Origin: a virus
IMG/VR virus record: IMGVR_UViG_3300008117_007749
Strand: one strand, 5' to 3'
DNA: 64,000 nt
In this document: piece after piece, positions 1,113-63,269 of the stretch
How the letters are laid out: each line of letters starts with the position of its first letter
Numbering within the stretch: position 1 is the stretch's first letter
Made by a program: the position numbers and the translations under genes
Notes under the pieces: generated by a model
What the model was told of the DNA's origin: nothing
Seen by the model: the letters and a program-made list of their open reading frames with translations, nothing else
Database searches by the model: none

Positions 1113-2173
1113 ATGAAACTTTTTAAATGATTTGCTGGAATTTGTTTGAGGTCTTCAATTAAATCCATTAATTCATTTCTATTAGCAATGTATTCATAAG
1201 AACCTGAGAAGGTAGCCCCGTGTAAATTTTGACCATCCCATGTCAAATCAATATAATCCGAATGCATCCCTGATGTTTTTAAATATGTAGAAATAGTTTC
1301 CTTTTCAACTTCAATTTGCTCATCAGATATCATCATTTTAGATGTTTTTCCTTCATAATTGACCCAAGTAAAATTATAACTTTGAAAAATAAGATTATCG
1401 TCGGTTTCATCAAAATCCCAATCATCCTCATATGAGTATAAAGAAGCCTCTCTTACAATTGGTAAATCTTCCCAGTCAATTTTAACAACAGCTTTACATA
1501 ACTTTTCTAAATGTTGTATATCTTGTCTTTCACTGTGTGTGTGTTCAGAATAATAACCAACTGATATATTAGTACATTCAGGAATAAGTCCAGTAAATTG
1601 AGCAGAGTCTGTATAAATACCTGTTGGATCGGGCATATATTTGAAAGTTTGTTCAACTGAATTCAGTTTTTTTGAAAGTTCTTTTGCAAAAGTATCAGAA
1701 CAACATACTCCATAAAATTGCTCTGTTATAACTGAGTCAGTACCTCTTCTATCAAATGAAACACATTTAGTGATGTATTTTGAAAACTCTGTTTCTTTCC
1801 ATTTCTTTGATAACCTCGATGAACCAACACATCCTCTTTCTTCACCAATAAAGAAGTAGTATAAACCAGGCACATTATTCTCTATCATATAGAGTATTAT
1901 AGTCATACCTGCTTTATCATCAGCTCCTAATATTGAATCACCGTCTGTTTTAATAATATTTCCGTCAAAAATGTGTTTTACTTTCTTTTGAGACCTATCA
2001 GCAGTATCAAGGTGACAAGTAAACATAGTAGTAGGATTACTACCTATTTCAATATAGAAATTACCACATCCATCCTCTTTATAATCTTTTGGTAAATGTG
2101 ATTTTAATTCATTTTCAGTCCCGTGTGGATAAGTTTTTCCAGTTAGTTGTAAAAACTTCTTTTTTATTTTCAT
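1109..2173 (-). CDS. M28/M20-clan zinc peptidase
   Basis: TCHLDTAD, ILGADDKAG, IGEERG, SFDRRG and ISVGYYSEH metal-ligand motifs. Confidence 0.8.
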   Translation of the reverse strand: MKIKKKFLQLTGKTYPHGTENELKSHLPKDYKEDGCGNFYIEIGSNPTTMFTCHLDTADRSQKKVKHIFDGNIIKTDGDSILGADDKAGMTIILYMIENNVPGLYYFFIGEERGCVGSSRLSKKWKETEFSKYITKCVSFDRRGTDSVITEQFYGVCCSDTFAKELSKKLNSVEQTFKYMPDPTGIYTDSAQFTGLIPECTNISVGYYSEHTHSERQDIQHLEKLCKAVVKIDWEDLPIVREASLYSYEDDWDFDETDDNLIFQSYNFTWVNYEGKTSKMMISDEQIEVEKETISTYLKTSGMHSDYIDLTWDGQNLHGATFSGSYEYIANRNELMDLIEDLKQIPANHLKSFI

Positions 2174-2741: not shown

Positions 2742-3117
2742 GATGATTCTTCTTTTTAACATCGACCACAAAATCATTGACGTGAAGAAATCTTCTTCCT
2801 ATCAGAAGTGGGTATTTCATTTCTTTTCTATTAGATAAAGAAACAAATATACTATATTTTTTTTGACCAATTATAATTTTAGTTTTAATTGCGTATCTTT
2901 TTTGTTTTTCACCATTGGAGCTCTTAACTTCTATCTCGGACCAATTACAAAAATGATAAGTATTATTTCCAATTTTTACTTCTAACTGATTTTCTAATTC
3001 TTTAATTGAATCTACATGTAAAGAAGCATTAAAAGCACCAGTATCTATCTTAGCTGTTAAAAAACCTTCTAATAATTTTGGAAAAAAAACTTTCTCTAAT
3101 CTACCAATTTTTTTCAT
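2719..3117 (-). CDS. Retropepsin-like aspartic protease (RimK-associated 'putative ATP-dependent Zn protease' family)
   Basis: AKIDTGA..SLH, VKSSNG..QKRY, LSNRKEMKYPLLIGRRFL. Confidence 0.8.
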   Translation of the reverse strand: MKKIGRLEKVFFPKLLEGFLTAKIDTGAFNASLHVDSIKELENQLEVKIGNNTYHFCNWSEIEVKSSNGEKQKRYAIKTKIIIGQKKYSIFVSLSNRKEMKYPLLIGRRFLHVNDFVVDVKKKNHHGRPKKV

Positions 3118-3146
3118 TTAGCCCTGATTTTGTTTATATATACTAT

Positions 3147-6100
3147 ATGATATTGATTTTAAAAATATCCAATTCGGATTTTTCAATTTATACTAACGAA
3201 TTCAATGAATGTTTAAAATATAACTTATCTATATTTGAAAGAATTTTTATTTTTTCTGATTTTCATTTAAGAGATTTTTCAGGTCATCCTAAAATTAGAG
3301 TATTCAAGTCACGTACTATTCAACCAACATTTAATTGTATAAATATTGCAAAAAGTAATGCAATTTCTAATGATATTTTTATTTTCTCAAATCCATTTGT
3401 AAAGTGGAAAGATTTGTCTTCACTTAATAATATTTCTAAAATTGAATGTTATCATAAACCCGATTGTTTTTATGTTTTTCATAGAAATTTACCACTACAC
3501 CAATCAAATGACTTAGATTCGATATTTGTAAATTTAAAAAGCTTTTCAGTTGATATAGAAAGGATTAAATCATGGCCAAATACTGAATCGCATACAAATA
3601 AAGAACAAATCCAAGTAATTAGAAGAAAGTCAGTTCCTTCTAATAAATCAATTTTATTAAATTCAAGTAGGGAAAAGAAACTTGATGTTTTAATAGTTTC
3701 TGTAAACTATAATGATTTTTTACTCACATCTTTACCATATAACAAAAAGATATTTGATAACATAACAGTAGTCACATCTACAGATGATTTAATGTGTCAA
3801 AAAATATGTGAAAAGTTTAGAGTTAATTGTTTAATAACAGATGTTATGTATGATAGCGACTCTAAATTCAATAAAGGAAAAGCTATAAACTATGGATTAA
3901 GTCAAATTGAAAATAAAGATCTAATATTAATATTAGATGCTGACATTATAGTAACCGAAAAAATAGAATTGAATCAATTAGATGATGAATCTCTTTACAC
4001 ATCTGGTAGATGGATATGTGAAACATATCACAGATTTCAGAATTGGGAAAAATCAAAAGACACTAATGATTTAAACAAATGGGAAAATGACAGAGGCTTT
4101 GGATTCTTTCAACTTTTTAACTCAAATAACCAAATATTGAATGGTAATTTTTATCCAGAAAATTTCAAAGACGCATCAATGTCAGATTTAGTTTTTAGAG
4201 ATAAATTCACAAGTAGAAGAAGTATAGAAAATAAAATAATACATTTAGGAGAAGCTTATACAAATTGGTCAGGTAGAAAAACTGCTAGATTTTTAACCGA
4301 TGATGATTTCTCAGTAATATTTAATAAAAAATCAACATTCACTATTTGTTCTTATTATTTTAATTATAGGGGAGACCTTAGACAAAAGAATAATTTTATA
4401 AAGTTTTTAGAACAATGGAAAGATTACTATGAAAATATGATTGTTGGAATTGTGGATTATGGAGATATAGACTTTGAAATTCCTTGTAAGACAATGACAA
4501 TCAAAGGTGATGAAGAAAATAAAATTTGGTCTAAAGAAATACTAATTAATAAAATAATCGAAACAGTTGATACTGATTATTTTATTTGGATAGACGGCGA
4601 CTTAATTTATGAAAATTTAGATTGGTTAAATAACATAGACGAAGTTGCAAAAGATAACGACTTTGTTCAATTATTTGAAACAATCAATTATTTAGATGAA
4701 ACTGGTAATATTTTGGAGTCTCATAAATCAATTATTTCAACTGGCTCAACTAACATAGACCAACTTTTAGGAAAGGGATATAAACCAGGTGGTTCTTGGC
4801 TTGGTAAAACATCTATACTCAAAGAAAATAAACTTTTTGAGAAAATGTACGTTGGTGGTGGAGATACTATTTTTGTATATGGGCTCTTCCATATAGATAA
4901 TGGATTTACTTTACAAAAAGTAAAAGAATATAACAATAATATTGGAAAAGAAGCACAGAGGTGGATAAATTCTCATAAAAAAACAAAAGTATCTTTTTTA
5001 GATGTTTGTTTGGACCATTTATATCATGGAAATCTTCAGAATAGAAATTACGACAATAGGTATAAAAAACTAAAAGAGTTTGAATCAGAAATAGATGTTA
5101 CTATACTAATTTTAGCACATAAACCTAGTGAATATTTGAAAAAATGCATATTGTCTGCAAAGAATCAAAAATTTAATGGCAATTTAGAAATATTATTGAC
5201 CTCAGACTCTTGTTCTGAATTGTCTTATGTAGAGTCGGAATATAATATAAGATTCACATTGGCACAAAAACCAGTCAAAAACTCATCTTGCTCATTTAAT
5301 TTTAATCACGGAGTAAAAGAATCAAAGGGCAAGTATATTAAAATTTTAGCTTATGATGACTTTCTATTAGAAGATACAATTCAAAATTTATATGATGAAA
5401 TAAAATCAGATAAATTTAGCCTAATTCATGCTAATTGTTACGAGGTTCATGAGAATCAAGTAAAAACTTACATACCAGAAGTTAAATCAATAAAAATTGA
5501 TGATTTATTAGTTAAAAACCATATTCATGGAGGTACAATAATCTTCAACAAAGAAGACTTTTTAGACACCAACGGATTAAACGATAATTTAATTTATGCA
5601 GAAGAATATGATTTTTATTTTAAACTACTTAGCAGAGGTAAAAAAATTGGTTATTTAGATAAATTTGTATATAATTACAGAAGACATTCCGGACAAAAGG
5701 GAACATTATCACTCACAAATGACGAAAAGTTAGCCAAATCTAAAATAGTCGAGAAGATAAGAAATAATTACAGACCTAAAAAAATAGTGTGTGGAATTGC
5801 AACAATATATGATAGAAAAGACTCATTAAAAAAAACAATCAATTCAATAATTGATCAAGTAGACGAGTTATTTGTCTATCAGAATGGATACTATAAAGTT
5901 TTTGATTTTCTAATTGACACTAAAATAAAAATTTTTAGCTCTATACACACCGGAATAGACATGGGTGACGCTGGAAAATTCTATAACATAGAAAATATCA
6001 AAGACTCATATTATTTCTCAATTGATGATGATTTGATATATCCTTCAAATTATGTCGAAAATACTATAGAAGAATTAAAAAAATTAAACAATGAATCAGT

Positions 6101-7172
6101 TGTCAGCTACCACGGTAAAAATTATAGTAAAAAAGCAACTTCATATTACAAACAAATATCTGAAAATTACAGATGTTTAAAGAATGTAGATGAAAACAAA
6201 GATATAGAATTTCCGGGAACAGGAGTGATGAGTTTTTGGACCGAATATTTAAAACTAAAATTCAAAGATTTTGAATATGCAAACATGGCGGATGTTTTTT
6301 TAGGAATTATAATTAAAAATCAAAATAAAAAATGCAAAGTACTTAATCACAAAGAGGGATGGATTAAACATGATGATATAAATATAGATAACAGCCTTTT
6401 TGTAGTAAATAAAAATAATAAAAAAATAGATGAAGTTTTTAATAGAAGAAACTTACCAAAAATTTGCATTGTGACTACTATGTGGCAAAGACACAGACTT
6501 ACTGACTTTGTATTTTCATATTATAATAAATTAAAATCAGAACTAAAAAATGAAATCAACCTAACCCTTATAGCATGTGGTTCTGAAGGAGAAGTCTCAA
6601 AAAAAATAGCTGAAAATAATGGATTTTATTATGTTGAATTTTCAAATTTTCCACTTTCAAAAAAACATAATGAAATTTTTATCAAATCAAAAGAATTTAA
6701 TCCCGATGGTGTTATATTGATTGGATCTGATGATTTTTTATCTAAAGAAACTTTATTGACTTATAAAAATCTATTAAACGATTACGAATACATCGGTTTT
6801 AAAGATTTTTATCTTCTTAACGAAAAGTCCGAATTAAGATACTGGAAAGGATATGAAAATGAAAGAGTTGGAGAACCAATTGGCGGTGGAAGATTCTATA
6901 GAAAGGATTTTTTAGAAAAAATAAATTGGCAACCCTGGGGTAAAGTAGAAATTAATAAATCTTTAGACCATGCATTTTCAAAACAGATACAAAATATAAC
7001 ATTAAATTCAAAGGTAATTGAGTGCTCGGATAAGAATGGAATAGTATTTACCATAAGGAGCACAACTAACATAACAAAAATGAATAATATTGGTCATTTA
7101 GTGGATAGTAAAATTGTGAATGATAAAATTTGTAATTTTTACGAATTACTAAAATTACAAAAAGAAATATAA
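3147..7172 (+). CDS. Multi-domain glycosyltransferase (about five tandem GT-A/GT2-like domains)
   Basis: DxD-type motifs ILDADI, WIDGDL, LAYDD, SIDDDL and IGSDD with FNKGKAIN, GGGD and HGG context. Start at 3147 after TTTATATATAC. Confidence 0.8.
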   Translation: MILILKISNSDFSIYTNEFNECLKYNLSIFERIFIFSDFHLRDFSGHPKIRVFKSRTIQPTFNCINIAKSNAISNDIFIFSNPFVKWKDLSSLNNISKIECYHKPDCFYVFHRNLPLHQSNDLDSIFVNLKSFSVDIERIKSWPNTESHTNKEQIQVIRRKSVPSNKSILLNSSREKKLDVLIVSVNYNDFLLTSLPYNKKIFDNITVVTSTDDLMCQKICEKFRVNCLITDVMYDSDSKFNKGKAINYGLSQIENKDLILILDADIIVTEKIELNQLDDESLYTSGRWICETYHRFQNWEKSKDTNDLNKWENDRGFGFFQLFNSNNQILNGNFYPENFKDASMSDLVFRDKFTSRRSIENKIIHLGEAYTNWSGRKTARFLTDDDFSVIFNKKSTFTICSYYFNYRGDLRQKNNFIKFLEQWKDYYENMIVGIVDYGDIDFEIPCKTMTIKGDEENKIWSKEILINKIIETVDTDYFIWIDGDLIYENLDWLNNIDEVAKDNDFVQLFETINYLDETGNILESHKSIISTGSTNIDQLLGKGYKPGGSWLGKTSILKENKLFEKMYVGGGDTIFVYGLFHIDNGFTLQKVKEYNNNIGKEAQRWINSHKKTKVSFLDVCLDHLYHGNLQNRNYDNRYKKLKEFESEIDVTILILAHKPSEYLKKCILSAKNQKFNGNLEILLTSDSCSELSYVESEYNIRFTLAQKPVKNSSCSFNFNHGVKESKGKYIKILAYDDFLLEDTIQNLYDEIKSDKFSLIHANCYEVHENQVKTYIPEVKSIKIDDLLVKNHIHGGTIIFNKEDFLDTNGLNDNLIYAEEYDFYFKLLSRGKKIGYLDKFVYNYRRHSGQKGTLSLTNDEKLAKSKIVEKIRNNYRPKKIVCGIATIYDRKDSLKKTINSIIDQVDELFVYQNGYYKVFDFLIDTKIKIFSSIHTGIDMGDAGKFYNIENIKDSYYFSIDDDLIYPSNYVENTIEELKKLNNESVVSYHGKNYSKKATSYYKQISENYRCLKNVDENKDIEFPGTGVMSFWTEYLKLKFKDFEYANMADVFLGIIIKNQNKKCKVLNHKEGWIKHDDINIDNSLFVVNKNNKKIDEVFNRRNLPKICIVTTMWQRHRLTDFVFSYYNKLKSELKNEINLTLIACGSEGEVSKKIAENNGFYYVEFSNFPLSKKHNEIFIKSKEFNPDGVILIGSDDFLSKETLLTYKNLLNDYEYIGFKDFYLLNEKSELRYWKGYENERVGEPIGGGRFYRKDFLEKINWQPWGKVEINKSLDHAFSKQIQNITLNSKVIECSDKNGIVFTIRSTTNITKMNNIGHLVDSKIVNDKICNFYELLKLQKEI

Positions 7173-7187
7173 AAAAGAAATAATAAT

Positions 7188-7724
7188 ATGTATAATTCAA
7201 AAGAATACTGGAACAAAAGACAAGATCCTAACAAAAGTAATTACACAAACTATATAGAAGATTCAGAAATACCAAAACTTATAGAGGACTGCAATTCTAT
7301 ATTAGATATAGGATGTGGTATAGGAAGAACATTCAAATTTTATGCAGATAAGAAAGTAACTGGTGTTGATTTTAGCGAGCTTTATCGACAAAGAGCAATT
7401 GAAGAAGCATCAAAACATGAAATAGATTTTGAACATCTAATATATGATATACATAAAAATGATTTACCTTTTGAGGATAATCACTTTGACATTGGTATAA
7501 CAGTTAAAGTTTTGTTACATGCTCCTCAAAAAGAAATGATTAGAATATTAACCGAGATGCACAGAGTTTGTAAAAAAGTTTTACTCATATCCTATCATGA
7601 TGAGAACAAAAATCTTGCTGAACATTGTTTTGCTCATGATTATATTTCAGAATTAAACAAATTGGGATATTCGATTGAATATAGCAAAATAATAAAAAAT
7701 CAAATTATAATAGTCTATGGATAA
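7188..7724 (+). CDS. Class I SAM-dependent methyltransferase
   Basis: ILDIGCGIGR, GVDFS, LPFEDNHFD, VLLH. Confidence 0.85.
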   Translation: MYNSKEYWNKRQDPNKSNYTNYIEDSEIPKLIEDCNSILDIGCGIGRTFKFYADKKVTGVDFSELYRQRAIEEASKHEIDFEHLIYDIHKNDLPFEDNHFDIGITVKVLLHAPQKEMIRILTEMHRVCKKVLLISYHDENKNLAEHCFAHDYISELNKLGYSIEYSKIIKNQIIIVYG

Positions 7725-8619
7725 AATACAATTATTAAAAATTGTTGAATTCATAGAAAGTAAATTCAATAATGTTAAAAAGATAAATACAGAAAGAATA
7801 TTATCAATAAGTAAAGTAATAAATAAATTAGAAAACTCTGACGAAGAGAGTCTGATGTGGCTTAATGAAAAAAATAAAAATAGAATTTTTGAAATATCAA
7901 CCGGAACGGTAATATGTTCTTTAGATTCTGAAATTCCAACAAATCCAAATCTATCAATTATTTTAGTTGAAAATCCAAGATTAGTATTTTCGGAAATATT
8001 AAAGAATTTTTTTGTGGAAAAACAGAATCATAAAATTCATTCAATTAATAACACTGATAATAAAATAGGAAAGAATGTTAATATTGGTAGAAACACAGTG
8101 TTAGAAGACGGTGTAATAATTGGTAACAATACTTATATAGGTAACAATAATGTCATATTAAAAAGCACAATAATTGGTAATAATGTAATAATAGGTAATA
8201 ATAATACAATAGGTGGTGTTGGGTTTGGTTATGAAAAAAACGAACTTGGTGAGTATGAATTAATTCCACATATAGGAAATGTTGTCATTGAAGACAATGT
8301 AGAAATAGGAAATAACAATTGCATCGACAGAGCAGTTTTAGGATCTACTATGTTAAGAAAAAACTGTAAAATTGATAATCTAGTTCATATAGCACACGGT
8401 GTTGATATAGGCGAGAACTCTCTAATAATAGCAAACTCAATGATAGCGGGAAGTGTTACAATTGGCGAAAATACCTGGATCGCTCCATCAACTTCGATAA
8501 TAAATAAATCATCAGTTGGTAGTAATAGCATGACCGGTATAGGCACAGTTGTTATAAAAAATATACCTAATAATGAATTACACATTGGTATTCCTTCAAA
8601 AAAATTAAAAGATATATGA
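7717..8619 (+). CDS. LpxD-like hexapeptide-repeat acyltransferase
   Basis: ENPRLVFS, GFGY, PHIGNVVIEDNVEIG, IDRAVLGST, KIDNLVHIAH; left-handed beta-helix repeats. Confidence 0.85.
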   Translation: MDKIQLLKIVEFIESKFNNVKKINTERILSISKVINKLENSDEESLMWLNEKNKNRIFEISTGTVICSLDSEIPTNPNLSIILVENPRLVFSEILKNFFVEKQNHKIHSINNTDNKIGKNVNIGRNTVLEDGVIIGNNTYIGNNNVILKSTIIGNNVIIGNNNTIGGVGFGYEKNELGEYELIPHIGNVVIEDNVEIGNNNCIDRAVLGSTMLRKNCKIDNLVHIAHGVDIGENSLIIANSMIAGSVTIGENTWIAPSTSIINKSSVGSNSMTGIGTVVIKNIPNNELHIGIPSKKLKDI

Positions 8620-9239
8620 ATGTTTTAATACTATCCCCACACACAGATGATGCGGAATTAGGATGTGGAGGAACAATATCAAAGTTGTTAGAACAAGGTA
8701 ATAATATTTTTGTTGCGATATTTTCACATTGTGATGACTCACTACCAAAAAATTTTATAAAAGGAACACTAAAGGAAGAATGTAAAAACTCACTAATAAG
8801 TTTGGGAGTTTTGGAAAATAATATTTTATTTTTTGACTATAAAGTCAGGTACTTCAACTACGAAAGACAAAGTATTTTAGAAGATTTAGTAGTAATCAAA
8901 AAAAATATATCACCAGAATTAGTTTTTACACCATCAATTGATGACCATCATCAAGATCACAAAACCATATCAGAGGAGTCTATAAGATGTTTTAAAAATA
9001 ATTGCTCAATACTTAGTTATGAACTAATATGGAACAACACCGGATTCAAAAATCAAATGTATTTCTCGTTATCCGAAAAAAACATAAATGATAAAATAAA
9101 TAGCTTAAGTTTCTATAAATCACAATCAAAAAGAAAATACATGAGCTCAGAATTTATAAAATCTCTTGCATTAGTAAGAGGAATTCAAAATGGAGTAAAT
9201 TTAGCCGAAGCATTTGAAGTAATAAGATATAAGTTTTAA
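8616..9239 (+). CDS. PIG-L/LmbE family N-deacetylase
   Basis: SPHTDDAELGCGG, DHHQDH, YKSQ, AEAF. Confidence 0.85.
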   Translation: MNVLILSPHTDDAELGCGGTISKLLEQGNNIFVAIFSHCDDSLPKNFIKGTLKEECKNSLISLGVLENNILFFDYKVRYFNYERQSILEDLVVIKKNISPELVFTPSIDDHHQDHKTISEESIRCFKNNCSILSYELIWNNTGFKNQMYFSLSEKNINDKINSLSFYKSQSKRKYMSSEFIKSLALVRGIQNGVNLAEAFEVIRYKF

Positions 9240-9284
9240 ACAAAAATATATCATTATGATATAAATAAAAAATAATTATTTTAA

Positions 9285-10046
9285 ATGAACCAAACTCATT
9301 CTTTCACATACGTTATTGGATATAGACACCAAATAGATAGATTAAACAACCTCAGAAGAGTTTTAGATTGGATAAACGGATTTATGGGTGTAGAAGTTTT
9401 ATTAATTGAACAAGATACACATTCTAAGATATCACATATGGGTCTTAGATGTAAGCACGTTTTCTTAAAATCAAATAAACCGTATAACAAATCGTGGGCA
9501 TTTAATTACGCCACCAAGATAGCAAAATCAAATATAATTGTTTTTGCTGATTCAGACCTACTGATGGATCCTAATCATTTTATTGAATCTCTTAAACATT
9601 TAGAACAATTTGAAATGGTGAATCCTTATAATTCAGTAATTGATCTAGAACCCCAAGAGTCAGCAATGCAGTTTGAAGATGTAATAAAGATTAATAGACC
9701 AGGTAGAGGAGAAACCGACCACCAAAAAGTTCCAATTTGTGGAGGAATTTGTATGTTCAGAAAAGACGCAATAAATAAAATCGGCGGATGGAATGAAAAT
9801 TTTATCGGATGGGGAGGAGAAGATGACTTTGTATCTATCAAAGTTCAACATTTTTTAAATTGGAAACAAATGGAAGCAAAATGTTATCATCTCTTTCATT
9901 CAAGACCTCAACCAGATATGAATCTATATCAAAAAAATTTACAACTTCACAACACGTATCTGAATATGACTAAAGAAGAATTCTCAAAACAACTTTATAA
10001 AGATATTGCTCGTAATGGTTTAAAAAACAAATATGACACATTTTAA
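9285..10046 (+). CDS. Glycosyltransferase (GT2/GT7 galactosyltransferase C-terminal-like)
   Basis: YNKSWAFN, FADSD, GGWNENFIGWGGEDD, HLFH. Confidence 0.8.
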   Translation: MNQTHSFTYVIGYRHQIDRLNNLRRVLDWINGFMGVEVLLIEQDTHSKISHMGLRCKHVFLKSNKPYNKSWAFNYATKIAKSNIIVFADSDLLMDPNHFIESLKHLEQFEMVNPYNSVIDLEPQESAMQFEDVIKINRPGRGETDHQKVPICGGICMFRKDAINKIGGWNENFIGWGGEDDFVSIKVQHFLNWKQMEAKCYHLFHSRPQPDMNLYQKNLQLHNTYLNMTKEEFSKQLYKDIARNGLKNKYDTF

Positions 10047-10779
10047 AGAACAATTAAAAACTATCTGTAACTATTCAGATAAGCAAATGAAATTGCCTAA
10101 TGCTCAATTAATGTATGTTGATATGATTTCTTCAGATGACGAAGAGTATCAGAGAAAAGTTAAACAACAAAATAGAGAATTGGTTGTTGAGGCTATATTA
10201 GATGATAAAGTCGAAGAGTTAAACATATTTAGAGAAAATCAAGTAGTTGATGTCTCTAACCAATATAACTCGACATCCACAATGGGCGTTATCGGTCCGA
10301 AAATAATGCAAATTAATATGACTGCTCAAAGATTTGAGAGTTATGAAAAGAGTTGGAATGAAGTGATTGATTTCTTAAATAAAAATACACAAAGTCCAAA
10401 ATCTAAAGCAAATGGACCATACTCATCATTAGATATCACTTTACAAGATGATTTTGATGTAGATTATAGAAAGATAATCTCAAAGATACTAATGTGTTCT
10501 AATATAATTGCGATGGATGGTAGAATTGGATCAGGAACATCAGTAATATATGGAAAAAACCTCTTACCATATATGTCTCAGTTTGATAAGGATAATAACG
10601 GAAATAACTTAACTACTTATTATAGTAAATTGGTTGATGATGATAAAGTAATTGTTTGTAGAGGAAATAATATAGACCAACCAGGATTACTATTTATCGA
10701 TAATTCACTAACTGGAAACTACTTCTTTAATCAAACTCCAAACTGGCATAAACAATATTGTTGGTTTAGAATTATTTAG
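10033..10779 (+). CDS. Truncated paralog of this phage's major capsid protein
   Basis: Colinear blocks shared with 61563..63269: LMYVD/LLYID, GVIGPKI (identical), RKIISKILMCSNIIAMDGRIG/RKLVTKIAHASNYIATEGRVG, KVIVCRGNNIDQPGLLF/RIVLGRKNNPDQPGIIF. Confidence 0.75.
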   Translation: MTHFKEQLKTICNYSDKQMKLPNAQLMYVDMISSDDEEYQRKVKQQNRELVVEAILDDKVEELNIFRENQVVDVSNQYNSTSTMGVIGPKIMQINMTAQRFESYEKSWNEVIDFLNKNTQSPKSKANGPYSSLDITLQDDFDVDYRKIISKILMCSNIIAMDGRIGSGTSVIYGKNLLPYMSQFDKDNNGNNLTTYYSKLVDDDKVIVCRGNNIDQPGLLFIDNSLTGNYFFNQTPNWHKQYCWFRII

Positions 10780-11311
10780 AAGCTACTCTTAATTTGTCAT
10801 ATTTAGATAACAACATAAACATATCTTTCCACTCAATCTCAGGATTTTCAACTTTTTTCTGATACCATTTATTATTATTTAAATACTCAACTATCATTCC
10901 GACTTTAAAATCTTCTAATTTATTTGGTTTCCAATATCTTACTTGTTCAACAAAAGAAAAACTTACTCCATTATATAGATAGGACATGTTATCAGCGTCC
11001 GTGTTATAAAGTGTAATACCTAAAGGCTTCTCAGATCCGTCTTTAAACAATTTTTTTGCTAAATTTTCTCCGGTATATTTAATTATTCCACAATCTTGAT
11101 GAAAATGATTTAATAAAAAAATCAAGTCTTTTCTTAACTCATCATTATCGATGTTAGAAAAAGCCATAACTGAATCTTCATACTGACCCTGATAATAACC
11201 TTTTATTGGAAGTATTTGATAATTTTTTGCATACAATATCGAAACCATATCATCTAATCTTTCAGACGAAAGGAGTATAAAAGCTAATTTAGGATTAGTT
11301 AAATCTATCAC
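10772..11311 (-). CDS. Hypothetical protein
   Basis: 179-aa ORF preceded by TTAATATATAT. Confidence 0.6.
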   Translation of the reverse strand: MIDLTNPKLAFILLSSERLDDMVSILYAKNYQILPIKGYYQGQYEDSVMAFSNIDNDELRKDLIFLLNHFHQDCGIIKYTGENLAKKLFKDGSEKPLGITLYNTDADNMSYLYNGVSFSFVEQVRYWKPNKLEDFKVGMIVEYLNNNKWYQKKVENPEIEWKDMFMLLSKYDKLRVASK

Positions 11312-11335
11312 AGAATATATATTAATATTAGTTTT

Positions 11336-12565
11336 TCACTTTAAATCAAATTCTTTTGATAACTCATAATCAAAAATATTTTTGATTTCTTCTTTATATA
11401 TTTTAGGAAAAACTATACTATCATGAACCGTTATTAATTTTATATCAGGATATAAAATCATAATTTTTTTTATGATTTTATTGTAGATTAATTTTGATTC
11501 AGCTCTTTGTAAATCATGAGCCAATACTTTATGATTACCCCATTCTTTTTTATATAACTTTATGAAATTATAAATTGTAGGAAATAATTTATTAAATTCA
11601 ATGTCCGCTTTTGAGTTGCTTCTGTTTCTTCCAAAAAGAACCTTATATGTCATTTCCTTTACTAAATTTCTATCTTTTTCACCAGTTGATTGCATTAAAA
11701 ATTGATAAAATTTCCCAGTCATTGTTAGTTGCTTAAAAAATTCAAATTCATCTCGATTGACCCATGCGGTTTGTGAGTCAGAAATCAATTTACATAAGAA
11801 AAGAGGCTGACTATTTTTAATATCTAATTCAAAAGTCTCTAGTCCGTCTATTAATAAACAATTTTTACGTATAAATGATTTTAGTATTGTAAAATTTGTA
11901 TGAAGTCTTCCATAATCATCAAAATGGTAAAATATATGTTTATCATTTATTGATTCAACTGAATAAATATTTCTATTATAAATGTCAATGTCTTCTTTTT
12001 TAAGACAGTTCAAATAAAATAGACTTCTTTCAAAATCAATATCAACTGAAAAAAGGTCTGATATTAATTTTTCTCGTATATCTATATTAATAGAAGACTT
12101 ATCAATATCTACAAATTCAATAGTGTCAAATATTTTCTTTTTATATTTTTTTACCAAAACTTTATCTTGATTATTTGTTCTTTTAATCTGTTCTTTAAAT
12201 ATTGTAGGATTTAAAGAATAGATTCTAGACGTAACACCTTTTTTATAATTACAAATCATCTTTATTATACTTTTATCAACAAGATAATCAATATAATGTT
12301 TGTATAAGTATCCATATTTATCTTTTAAAACTTGAGCATTTATCGTAAATTTATTTTCTTTCTTAAAATAATATTTAAGAAGAAGGTTATGAACGATATC
12401 AATTAAGTAAGAAGTCTTAATTTTTTCATCTTTGTAAAAGATATGACTTGTCTTGGAAACTAATTCAAGACATTTAGGTAAGAATTGTAAAGATTGATTT
12501 TTTTTATTAAGTTTTTTAGTAATATTTGATTTATAAAGAGAAGGTAAATTATTGGATATTTTCAT
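11336..12565 (-). CDS. Minimal family-A-fold polymerase-like protein (no exonuclease domain)
   Basis: DDYGRLHT, motif A LDIKNSQP, motif B RNLVKEMTYKVLFG, LQRAES, motif C ITVHDSI. Confidence 0.6.
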   Translation of the reverse strand: MKISNNLPSLYKSNITKKLNKKNQSLQFLPKCLELVSKTSHIFYKDEKIKTSYLIDIVHNLLLKYYFKKENKFTINAQVLKDKYGYLYKHYIDYLVDKSIIKMICNYKKGVTSRIYSLNPTIFKEQIKRTNNQDKVLVKKYKKKIFDTIEFVDIDKSSINIDIREKLISDLFSVDIDFERSLFYLNCLKKEDIDIYNRNIYSVESINDKHIFYHFDDYGRLHTNFTILKSFIRKNCLLIDGLETFELDIKNSQPLFLCKLISDSQTAWVNRDEFEFFKQLTMTGKFYQFLMQSTGEKDRNLVKEMTYKVLFGRNRSNSKADIEFNKLFPTIYNFIKLYKKEWGNHKVLAHDLQRAESKLIYNKIIKKIMILYPDIKLITVHDSIVFPKIYKEEIKNIFDYELSKEFDLK

Positions 12566-12600
12566 ATAGATTATATATGATATTCACATTATGGTTTTTG

Positions 12601-12792
12601 TTAAGGAAATATATTTTTGATTGAATTTTTTCGTTTTTCAATTCTAAAAATTCTTTCTATTTCTTTCTCTAAGGAAACACCATGATATGAGTTTAAATCC
12701 TGCACCATTTCATGTGACCAAGTAGCTCTTAGAGATCTTGTTTCAGATCTAACCTCAACAGAAGTCATATTAAGATTAATTTCCTTCATCAT
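12601..12792 (-). CDS. Small protein resembling a segment of canonical T4-type gp23, fused to a KRKNSIKNIF tail
   Basis: EINLNMTSVEVRSETRSLRATWSHEMVQDLNSYHGVSLE resembles the gp23 segment (K/S)R.LKA.(W/Y)(S/T).ELAQDL.A.HG.DA. Confidence 0.6.
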   Translation of the reverse strand: MMKEINLNMTSVEVRSETRSLRATWSHEMVQDLNSYHGVSLEKEIERIFRIEKRKNSIKNIFP

Positions 12793-14129
12793 TTAAGAGG
12801 TGTTTTAGGCTCGTCTGTTGATTCTGGTGTTATTGGCATTTTTCCACCTTTTCCTTTTTTCTTTTTATCAGAAGGAATTCCTTTCTCAAACTCATCATAT
12901 ACGTCAGGATATACTTGACCCTCAGCATCTGTGTCATATTGAATCTCAAAGAAGTCACCAAAGTCTAAAAGACCAGCTCGTCCTAATTCTATTTCATGCA
13001 TCTTATTTAGATATTTAGAAATATATACATCAATATCATCTACAAATTTGTTAAATAAACTGACTGTATTTTCCGTAAATACACCAATAGCTTTCTTTCT
13101 CTTTTTATTGAATGATCCTAATATCACTTTAAAAATATATTCTAACTTTTTATCTTCTGTTATATAGTCTTTAGTTAATTTATTTTTAATTAACTCGGTA
13201 TTAATTTTGAACTTCTCTTTGTCGAAAAATTCAGGAACAGTGAAGTCAAAATTTAATAAATCTTCTTTTACTTCACTCATATAGATATTGAATAACTTAC
13301 AAATAAGATAGATGTAGATTTCATCCTTTTTCTCACCTTTTAAATTTATATCGGTCAAATTTACCGACTGACAAAAATTTAAGAAATTCACAAGTATTAA
13401 AGTATAAATTTCAACAAAATCTGTCTGATTAGTATCACTGAATCTTTTATAAAGAGGATTCAATAATTCAAAAGAAATATCTCTACTTTGACTTCTAATA
13501 ACTAATTTTTCTAAATTCTTTTGAAAGTCTTCATTCATTAAAAAGGAATTATCTAAACTAGGATTTAGTATTTTATAGAAAAAATAAGCAAATGATTTTT
13601 CACCAAAAACATATTCTAAATCTTCTTCCGAAGTGTTAATAAAGTATTTTATCGCCTCTTTCATAGTCTCGGTCAATTGACCCTGGTAAATAACGGGTAT
13701 CAAATCAACTTGAAATAATCTAGCATACTCATCTAACTCATCTATTGAAAAGTCATACTTTTTATTTTTATTAATAGCAGTGATAACTAATTGATTTTGA
13801 GGAACTCTATTATACTCAATATTAGCAGGTTGATTATCAGGAAAATATTCAAAACAAAACCACCATTTTCTATTGAGTAAATTCTTCACATTTACGTCTA
13901 ATTCACTAAAGAACTTAATTACCGGATTATAGTAATTTTGCATAGCCAAATCTATCAAATTTATTGGCTCATTTGAAATAGACTTTGGTCTAATTTCAAA
14001 TTCATTTCCATTCCAATTGACCCATATTTTTGATCCTTGAATATCTTCCAATACAAGGATTTCATCATTGAACAATTCTGATATAAGTTGCTCATCGTCA
14101 ATTCCATTTAAGGTTATTAATTTACTCAT
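12789..14129 (-). CDS. RNA ligase (Rnl2)-like fold protein, probably catalytically inactive
   Basis: Motif I reads LEDIQGS instead of EKxDGS; FCFEY motif III-like; IPVIYQG. Confidence 0.5.
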   Translation of the reverse strand: MSKLITLNGIDDEQLISELFNDEILVLEDIQGSKIWVNWNGNEFEIRPKSISNEPINLIDLAMQNYYNPVIKFFSELDVNVKNLLNRKWWFCFEYFPDNQPANIEYNRVPQNQLVITAINKNKKYDFSIDELDEYARLFQVDLIPVIYQGQLTETMKEAIKYFINTSEEDLEYVFGEKSFAYFFYKILNPSLDNSFLMNEDFQKNLEKLVIRSQSRDISFELLNPLYKRFSDTNQTDFVEIYTLILVNFLNFCQSVNLTDINLKGEKKDEIYIYLICKLFNIYMSEVKEDLLNFDFTVPEFFDKEKFKINTELIKNKLTKDYITEDKKLEYIFKVILGSFNKKRKKAIGVFTENTVSLFNKFVDDIDVYISKYLNKMHEIELGRAGLLDFGDFFEIQYDTDAEGQVYPDVYDEFEKGIPSDKKKKGKGGKMPITPESTDEPKTPLK

Positions 14130-61562: not shown

Positions 61563-63269
61563 TTAGTTAAGGAAACCAGCTGCATCTACAACTTTGATAG
61601 TCATAAATTGCTTTTGTGGGAACCAACCAACTTCAGCAACTGCATATCTACTTCTTAGTAACATTCTTGGAGCGAATGTAGCTTCAGAAATGATAGAGAT
61701 TGACTGAGCCATTAAGTAAGGTACGAAAATGATACCTGGTTGGTCAGGATTGTTCTTTCTACCAAGAACGATTCTGTTGTCGTTATATTTCATATATGGA
61801 TCAACATAGATTGAAATATCACCAATTGAACCTACAGGGTAAAGTTGTCCAGAAGCATTCATTTTAGACTTCAACGGGTTAATTGTATAACCAGCGATAT
61901 CAGATAGAGCTGCAGCAAGACCTCCGTTTGTAATAACGTACTGAGCAGGACCTACACGACCTTCAGTTGCGATATAGTTAGAAGCGTGAGCAATCTTAGT
62001 GACAAGCTTTCTTTGAACAGCGTGAGTAGTTTCACCACCAGGACCACCTGTACCAACATAAGCTGTGTTTAAGTCGAAGATAGTCTTACCAGCTGGGTCA
62101 CCAGTTAATGCTGCACCTGCTGCTGGAGCTGAAGTTCTGTTAAGATCACCTAATTCAAAAATCTTAGCAACGATTTGCTTAGAGATTGTTTGAGATAATT
62201 CATTAACAAGAATAGATTCCATTTTTTGAACGATATCCATACCTGTGTTAGCTTTGATATCTTCAATTTCAGTTCTTCTAAGAGCTGAAGATACTTCGAT
62301 AGTACCAACTGCGATAGTTTTAGAAGAGATTTTTGGACCGATAACACCTGAGTAAGTATCATCATCATCCTGACGAGACATTGGGTAGTTTCCAGTAAAT
62401 CCAGAAGCTCCTGATGTCCAGTTTGAAGAGAATCCAGGGATATGATCTTCAAGAGCTGATACTAATTCAACTGTTAAGTTAGCAGCACCTGGAGTAACAG
62501 ATACAGTACCTACTGTAGCGATTTGATCAACCATTGACATAGTTGCATTGAAAGTGTTTCTTGTTTCATCAAATGACCAAAGAGCACCAGCACCACTATT
62601 AACAGCTGTATGAGATGTATTAAATTGTCTGAAAGCTCTAAACATTGGATAACCATCAATACGAGAGAATCCTAAGAATTCAACAACACCCGCTCTAGAA
62701 CCACCTGGATCAGCAGCAGCATTTACAGTTGAACCGTAGATGTTTGTGAACCATCTTCCTTGAAGACCACCTTGTGTTTGAGCACCAGCGTTAGCTGTCA
62801 AAGTAGCATTTACAGCAGCTTTCTGAGCAGCATCATCAACGTTTAATTTGAAAACTTGTGGTCTTTCATCTTGTTGTCCCAATCTTGTATCATCATATTG
62901 GAAGTCAATGTAAAGTAAGTCGATTTTTGGACCTGGAGAAGGTTTAACAGCAACAAGGTCAAGACCGATTGTTTGAGCTGCGATTTTCATAGCTACAGGT
63001 AATAGGTTTTGACCAACATCACCAGAACCAGGAGTTCCTGTGTAGTTAGCACCTACTGTTGTTCCAGCAGGACCACCAATTACTGGGTTCAATACTGCAC
63101 CCATACCAGCTACGTTAGAAGCGTTTACATACGCGTTCTCATTAATTGAGTGATACTCAGCATATTCTGACATCCAATCAAGTCTGTCTTCACCTGCTAC
63201 ACCCATGTTCTCAAGAACTGGAGACCACTTCTTAAGAGCTTTTGATTTGTCTATTCTAATGTGTGACAT
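61563..63269 (-). CDS. Major capsid protein (gp23-like)
   Basis: KKWSPVLE, AAQTIGLDLVAVKP, D..ESILVNEL.Q.I, VG..G...IYVDPY, GIIFVPY, TFAPR....SRYA; highly biased codon usage. Confidence 0.92.
   Translation of the reverse strand: MSHIRIDKSKALKKWSPVLENMGVAGEDRLDWMSEYAEYHSINENAYVNASNVAGMGAVLNPVIGGPAGTTVGANYTGTPGSGDVGQNLLPVAMKIAAQTIGLDLVAVKPSPGPKIDLLYIDFQYDDTRLGQQDERPQVFKLNVDDAAQKAAVNATLTANAGAQTQGGLQGRWFTNIYGSTVNAAADPGGSRAGVVEFLGFSRIDGYPMFRAFRQFNTSHTAVNSGAGALWSFDETRNTFNATMSMVDQIATVGTVSVTPGAANLTVELVSALEDHIPGFSSNWTSGASGFTGNYPMSRQDDDDTYSGVIGPKISSKTIAVGTIEVSSALRRTEIEDIKANTGMDIVQKMESILVNELSQTISKQIVAKIFELGDLNRTSAPAAGAALTGDPAGKTIFDLNTAYVGTGGPGGETTHAVQRKLVTKIAHASNYIATEGRVGPAQYVITNGGLAAALSDIAGYTINPLKSKMNASGQLYPVGSIGDISIYVDPYMKYNDNRIVLGRKNNPDQPGIIFVPYLMAQSISIISEATFAPRMLLRSRYAVAEVGWFPQKQFMTIKVVDAAGFLN

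Follow-up and report, generated by a model that had tools for sequence, protein, structure and literature searches.

We identified a compact paralog of the major capsid protein (MCP) that is genetically paired with a glycosyltransferase gene in a stretch of viral DNA most likely derived from a huge phage. The stretch (hereafter the window) comprises 64,000 nucleotides (nt) of IMG/VR record IMGVR_UViG_3300008117_007749. The open reading frame (ORF) in question encodes a protein of 248 amino acids (aa), P0001, and its ATG overlaps by 14 nt the stop codon of the gene for a 253-aa glycosyltransferase, GT253 (Table 1). Our interpretation, held tentatively, is that the small protein is an old, cut-down derivative of a Gp23-type MCP which acts as partner of GT253 in capsid-directed glycosylation, either as a docking subunit or as an acceptor. 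The original prediction, made from the sequence alone, had the coordinates of the ORF and the lengths of both capsid-type proteins right, together with the overlap and the separation of the two genes (about 51 kb; 50.8 kb by our measurement).

Homology between P0001 and the MCP of the same record, which had been claimed from shared motifs, was recovered by pairwise and by profile alignment. BLASTP aligned residues 146-222 of P0001 with residues 420-516 of the MCP (E 7e-9, 30% identity). A 77-member alignment of the small family (A1) matched the MCP with a probability of 97.5% (E 6.9e-12), and comparison of A1 with a 21-member MCP alignment by hhalign gave a probability of 98.4% (E 9e-15). These significant statistics cover two C-terminal A-domain blocks only, RK..(S/T)KI...SN.IA..GR.GPA and D.(K/R)I(I/V)..R....(D/N)QPG, which are common to the small family and the MCP and are the best-conserved blocks of the former. 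Moreover, the A1 profile picks up the MCPs of PAU, PTm1, MA9V-1, MaF61 and Lak-A2 as well as those of five huge phages, and the Pfam Gp23 model (PF07068) is matched by 26 of the 77 family members (best E 2.1e-9). P0001 alone has no match in Pfam or PHROGs. Searched against PDB sequences, the family profile returned chance-level matches only, and the MCP itself is likewise without a PDB sequence match.

Four colinear blocks had been proposed to be shared with the MCP, of which the two C-terminal ones are significant. The two N-terminal ones, LMYVD and GVIGPKI, are the best two matches when the N-terminal half is aligned alone with hhalign and lie in colinear order, at E values that are marginal (0.035 and 0.073). 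Both are nevertheless conserved in the two families: L.Y[VI]D and G[VI]I[SG]PKI are present in about 150-200 of 249 small-family sequences and also in the MCP consensus. A fifth colinear block can be aligned by eye, LNKNTQSP at residues 115-122 of the small protein corresponding to LNRTSAP at residues 376-382 of the MCP. We take the colinear block mapping to be right; an AlphaFold2 (AF2) model of the MCP, built on 36 close homologs to check it, was unusable (pLDDT 46.9). Under this mapping the small protein begins at about MCP residue 100, meaning that the propeptide and N-arm (the first ~100 residues) are absent, and a helical hairpin of about 50 residues (H34-56 and H60-69 in the model described below) replaces an MCP insertion region of about 185 residues. 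Both features had been correctly anticipated. In addition, the stretch from the GVIGPKI block to the LN.T block, the E-loop/spine region, is shorter by about 38 residues, and the E-loop of the small paralog appears shortened.

The AF2 model of the small paralog, built on A1, reached a pLDDT of 90.7 and a pTM of 0.85. T4 head proteins rank top for this model in a Foldseek search against the PDB. A Foldseek-independent search (VIA) placed T4 gp24 first (1yue_A, Z 12.9, 199 residues aligned, root-mean-square deviation 4.1) and T4 gp23 second (Z 12.3, within 1 Z unit of gp24), followed by HK97-fold capsids and encapsulins, the latter at Z 8.5-10.6. Among viral models, the fold matches included a 297-aa protein of Vibrio phage nt-1 annotated as 'head vertex protein' (TMq 0.50). 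The ESM Atlas returned capsid-like clusters at a score of 0.82, which we treat as a lead only; the Atlas's own model is poor. The small paralog is predicted by its model to be a complete minimal HK97 fold with A and P domains and no fragment. The earlier view that the protein is too truncated for a normal gp24-type vertex protein is weakened by this model, its top match to gp24 and the existence of the 297-aa nt-1 protein.

Encapsulins, which share with the small paralog a compact HK97 fold without insertion domain (theirs of ~260-290 aa) and a use with enzymes, were rejected as an identification. They are cellular, keep the E-loop and N-arm and hold cargo with targeting peptides, whereas the small paralog is encoded in phage genomes, its nearest sequence relatives are Gp23 MCPs, and in its model the N-arm is missing and the E-loop region is short.

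Second copies of capsid proteins are known as vertex proteins, T4 gp24 being an example, and T4-type phages typically place an MCP paralog at the vertices. Like gp24 (PDB 1yue) and the nt-1 vertex protein, the small paralog represents an additional HK97-fold protein of the T4-like capsid lineage, smaller than the Gp23-type MCP to which it is paralogous. It could be a reduced gp24-type vertex (penton) protein, with five copies at each of eleven non-portal vertices, in which case the glycosyltransferase would be unrelated to it or would merely glycosylate it. The top structural match agrees with such a role, as does the existence of compact vertex proteins shown by nt-1, and we found no second full-size Gp23 paralog in LR745206, the closest complete huge phage. 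However, the nearly equal score of gp23 means that the fold does not single out gp24, which is also much longer (427 aa). Moreover, the N-arm and insertion domain that are absent under the block mapping, and the E-loop that appears shortened, are elements that tie T4 shell subunits together. The position of the gene is equally awkward for a vertex protein: a gp24-type gene would be expected beside the MCP gene, whereas this one is 12-51 kb away from the head module (12-23 kb in LR756502 and LR745206) and, in the loci fetched, always closes a cluster of sugar genes. Its divergence, far above that of the MCP (see below), is unlike that of a lattice-locked subunit, and a fusion to a sugar isomerase domain, also described below, is hard to fit. 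PAU, PTm1 and LR756504 share the MCP type and have no such paralog; therefore this MCP can presumably form pentons itself. We regard a vertex role as improbable. Papers on the capsids of phiKZ and Goslar describe pentons built of MCP, which is not relevant here.

The small family is widespread and under constraint. A word-indexed search returned 179 homologs of 230-262 aa with 64-100% identity, and an exhaustive search about 130 clusters at 50% identity, nearly all of 230-280 aa. We looked for frameshifts in relatives and saw none. In comparison with the related locus L004, the ratio of non-synonymous to synonymous substitution rates (dN/dS) is 0.19 for the small paralog versus 0.05-0.09 in neighbouring genes. 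Conserved residues are spread along the whole chain, with R48 and G218 invariant and T119, R164, G166, K205, I207, W244 and F245 nearly so; R48, T119, W244 and F245 are specific to the small family. The gene is thus intact and free of pseudogene decay, as had been supposed. A functionless, decaying remnant of a capsid gene duplication, for which the small size and the missing direct Pfam or PHROG match of P0001 speak and nothing more, is rejected by the many close homologs and clusters, the lack of frameshifts, the dN/dS, the confident fold and the conservation along the whole length, and its probability is negligible. The variable loops showed no Ser/Thr enrichment of the kind that would be a sign of mucin-like O-glycosylation.

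The small paralog evolves much faster than the MCP, judging from sequence comparison with relatives. Against LR745206 the small protein is 27% identical, versus 77% for the MCP and 59-77% for the neighbours; against L004 the values are 75% for the small protein and 92-98% for the neighbours. In the latter comparison, nucleotide identity falls from 95-100% in GT253 to 58-82% inside the small-paralog gene. Moreover, the synonymous rate dS reaches 0.67-0.70 both for the small paralog and for the 179-aa gene after it (tract 10033..11311) versus 0.10-0.23 in the flanks. The raised dS and the drop in nucleotide identity therefore indicate that the tract has recombined, in addition to the faster change of the protein. 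In a tree of 90 shared core columns the small family falls outside the clade of all related MCPs, including those of PAU, PTm1 and Lak, and is therefore either old or very fast-evolving. The original prediction of a paralog of the phage's own MCP stands in that the protein is a genuine miniaturised MCP paralog; a recent copy is not supported, since the family branches outside the related MCP clade. Compared with the T4 Gp23 family (PF07068), the small family shares the A-domain sequence blocks and the overall fold but has less than half the length, and P0001 itself falls below detection by the model.

Such rates could also be read as the product of conflict. The small paralog is the fastest-evolving gene of its block except for a 63-aa Gp23-like ORF, a recombination tract lies at the locus, and several other small Gp23-derived ORFs are present in these genomes, all of which would suit a non-assembling capsid mimic acting as a decoy for capsid-sensing defences or as a dominant-negative poison for the capsids of co-infecting phages. 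However, a dN/dS of 0.19 denotes mainly purifying selection, and the likeness of the promoter-like motif described below to the T4 late consensus is at odds with the early expression expected of a decoy. Moreover, the pairing and co-occurrence with GT253 and the isomerase fusion are left unexplained, and we know of no sensor or target for such a mimic. We consider this very unlikely; the decoy that had been put forward earlier draws on nothing but fast evolution and does not account for the tie to sugar genes.

GT253 is identified by matches to Pfam PF02709 (1.8e-9) and PF00535 (1.2e-7) and to the PHROG 'galactosyl transferase' (1.7e-16), and is the last enzyme of a plus-strand glycan cluster. 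We searched all loci fetched with hidden Markov models and counted 17 that hold a stand-alone small protein. In 14 of the 17 the gene immediately upstream, with the same orientation, belongs to the GT253 family, and in 13 it abuts or overlaps the small-paralog gene. A search for related loci yielded a single locus for P0159 and nothing for P0209, P0213 or P0244, which are distant members. The pairing is kept where the small proteins are only 24-34% identical, and also in the distant members P0209 and P0244 despite different other neighbours. Two of the three exceptions, P0213 and P0230, fall inside the MCP clade (SH-aLRT 99) and constitute a separate, younger lineage of small paralogs, leaving 14 of 15. 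Moreover, the enzymes further upstream vary (L004, L022/L023, L049) while the pair of GT253 and small protein stays. The pairing and co-occurrence suggest that the small paralog and GT253 work together, possibly in adding sugars to the virus shell.

The pair may also be expressed as a unit. A conserved motif precedes GT253; it consists of TATAA(A/T)(T/A)A and, behind it, an A-rich spacer, and 17-18 nt separate its end from the ATG of that gene. It is found at equal distance in all lineages checked (the window, L004, L005, L022, L024, L026 and L028), and its TATAAATA-like element occupies 9260-9267 in the window. The motif is similar to a T4 late promoter and might be the start point of a two-gene unit of GT253 and small protein. 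TATAAATA alone is not enriched in the AT-rich window (21 found versus 15.7 expected), and a scan for it upstream of ORFs was not discriminating as a marker of late promoters. Co-folding of GT253 (alignment A2) with the small protein (A1) gave a score of 0.00, which weighs neither way on binding.

We then considered nine complete genomes (LR745206, LR756502, LR756504, LR756501, PTm1, PAU, MA9V-1, MaF61 and Lak-A2). Both GT253 and the small protein are present in LR745206 and LR756502, and neither a GT253 ortholog nor a stand-alone small protein was found in LR756504, LR756501, PTm1 or PAU; PAU has only two weak glycosyltransferase matches (best E 2.5e-8). The A1 profile found no small protein in MA9V-1, MaF61 or Lak-A2, where GT253 was not searched for. 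The phage LR756500 (462 kb) encodes a 408-aa fusion protein that combines a small-family domain (hhalign 96.8%, E 2e-10) with a SIS sugar isomerase domain (Pfam 1e-16). In the core tree the former domain is not resolved from the small family. The fusion is the last gene of a Kdo/capsule operon encoding a KpsC/S-like protein, two methyltransferases, a sulfotransferase, a GT2/GT7C glycosyltransferase, a pyruvyl transferase, KdsA and KdsB, and LR756500 has only a distant glycosyltransferase match (E 1.3e-6).

The fusion partner is a soluble isomerase of a Kdo operon, which opens another explanation: a capsomer-like ring that organises sugar-pathway enzymes in the cytoplasm, using the HK97 fold for oligomerisation only and making no contact with capsids. 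The overlap with GT253 suggests near-equal synthesis, as in the subunits of one complex, and the A-domain, the source of capsomer ring contacts, is the best-kept part of the protein. However, oligomerisation is purely hypothetical, and a generic scaffold would need no MCP-like motifs kept over very long divergence. To our knowledge, no HK97-fold scaffold for soluble enzymes exists except encapsulin shells. A scaffold of this kind therefore seems unlikely to us.

Returning to a partnership of the small paralog with GT253 in capsid-directed glycosylation, we propose the following mechanism. GT253 and the small protein would be produced together, late, from one two-gene unit. The retained core of A and P domains, with its MCP-shared blocks, would bind MCP subunits or capsomers as a neighbouring shell subunit would, and the family-specific parts (the N-terminal LK.ICNY.E and the NR.L.ID..LD helix with invariant R48) would hold or present GT253. 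Sugars from the variable upstream enzyme island would then end up on the capsid. In a variant, the small protein is itself the acceptor, that is a minor capsid glycoprotein, with T119, which is nearly invariant and opens a variable loop, as candidate site. We favour the docking role because the enzyme fusion and the gene overlap are easier to reconcile with subunits of a single complex than with an enzyme-substrate pair, and the acceptor variant is nearly as good. A glycosyltransferase adaptor had been among the original suggestions and is a serious candidate through conserved adjacency, co-occurrence and domain fusion, which make the link to glycosylation genes much stronger than the sequence alone could reveal; physical docking is what we infer from these. 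In its more general form, the proposal would have huge phages reuse the HK97 fold as a non-shell targeting subunit, an MCP mimic that brings a glycosyltransferase, or a fused sugar-pathway enzyme, to the capsid and so coats it with glycans. This we put forward as a doubtful idea.

Several points weigh against the partnership. The case for interaction, virion location and glycosylation is indirect throughout. L027 is one true family member without a neighbouring glycosyltransferase. In the cultured phages PTm1, PAU, MA9V-1, MaF61 and Lak-A2 the A1 profile matched only their MCPs, leaving no cultured carrier. If the small protein bridged two well-conserved partners (GT253 59-98%, MCP 77%), one would expect higher conservation than the 27-31% seen, and the adjacency could in part be gene order inherited within one phage lineage. 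Moreover, it is not obvious what would be gained by fixing a soluble Kdo-pathway isomerase to a capsid, and the fusion may mean a plain oligomerisation scaffold. The glycan island could also be directed at something other than the capsid, for example the host surface or DNA.

Phage-encoded glycosyltransferases glycosylate the capsid and tail of mycobacteriophages. Chloroviruses similarly glycosylate their capsid with a virus-encoded system (PMC9614988, PMC7019647). These virion glycosylation systems resemble the present one in that virus-encoded glycosyltransferases are genetically linked to a capsid-type protein. They differ in that their enzymes act on the MCP itself and no dedicated capsid-like partner has been described, and in that glycosylation here is deduced from gene content. 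In the literature on capsid paralogs and glycosylation in huge phages we found no account of the small family, nor of any capsid-like protein acting as partner to phage glycosyltransferases. As far as we know, a compact MCP copy that is genetically locked to a glycosyltransferase, and once fused to a sugar isomerase, is undescribed. Should the pairing correspond to a physical complex, it would provide a first handle on whether and how phages of 0.5-0.7 Mb coat their capsids with self-made glycans, and would represent reuse of the HK97 fold outside shell building. In that case GT253 and the small protein would also form a two-gene cassette that can be expressed and tested without phage culture.

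The window is AT-rich (GC 25-38%) and is part of a 122-kb record (122303 bp); the features discussed are collected in Table 1. The MCP of the record shares 74-97% identity with MCPs on contigs of up to 687 kb and 76-77% with those of the curated phages LR745206 (635 kb) and LR756502 (642 kb), from which we conclude that the record most likely represents part of a huge-phage genome. CheckV estimates its completeness at 54%. However, the MCP is 74-77% identical to MCPs of phages, curated or assembled, that measure 600-690 kb, and the genome size implied by this estimate may therefore be several-fold too low. Downstream of the small paralog, a convergent block on the minus strand (10772..14129) holds genes of 179, 409, 63 and 446 aa, none with a Pfam or PHROG match, whose order is kept in every relative examined, whether close or distant (L004, L005, L022, L024, L026 and L028).

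Table 1. Position and supporting evidence of the main features in the window.
Feature	Coordinates	Strand	Evidence
Small MCP paralog P0001, 248 aa	10033..10779	+	ORF, BLASTP to MCP, hhalign, AF2, dN/dS
GT253, 253-aa GT-A glycosyltransferase (GT2/Glyco_transf_7C, WGGEDD motif)	9285..10046	+	Pfam, PHROG
AT-rich promoter-like motif	9259..9284	+	Sequence, kept position in relatives
Upstream glycan-gene island	3078..9239	+	Pfam: 1364-aa multi-domain glycosyltransferase, methyltransferase, hexapeptide (LpxD-like) acyltransferase, PIG-L deacetylase
MCP, 568 aa, Gp23 family, full-size homolog	61563..63269	-	Pfam PF07068 E 6.9e-27

Other small ORFs that derive from the MCP seem to turn up repeatedly in these genomes, and capsid-gene miniaturisation may therefore be recurrent in huge phages. 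The 63-aa ORF of the convergent block (12601..12792, minus strand) resembles E-loop/spine residues 256-296 of T4 gp23 (E 0.05) but bears no such resemblance to the phage's own MCP, and its homologs in L004 and L022 have a weak match to the Pfam Gp23 model. No gene of the block varies more (48% identity versus 97-98% in its neighbours; dN/dS 0.51), and its product ends in a basic tail, KRKNSIKNIF. A similar basic RKNSI-type motif occurs in two adjacent ORFs of 67 and 93 aa in the same genome, outside the window (L003 1193..1396 and 1516..1797; G000:C1:112285-112889), which look like spine-helix and C-terminal pieces of the MCP. LR745206 has three comparable small ORFs that match different parts of the Gp23 model. 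Larger derivatives also exist: LR756501 encodes a 479-aa MCP-derived paralog (L038 1387..2826) beside PHO4 and PhoU-like phosphate genes, and LR756500 two further small MCP paralogs of 209 and 313 aa, which are adjacent (L044 1330..2901). P0213 and P0230 (L047 6934..7734 and L048 7001..7762) represent a second, independent family of paralogs of 253-266 aa nested in the huge-phage MCP clade, and follow an ORF of ~180 aa (with a Pfam NADAR match in L047 and none in L048) and no glycosyltransferase. Lastly, a Bacteroidota host is hinted at by L027 (3542..5992), on a 436-kb contig, where the small paralog is preceded by an 816-aa protein that combines SprB repeats and PKD domains with a CHU_C type IX secretion signal.

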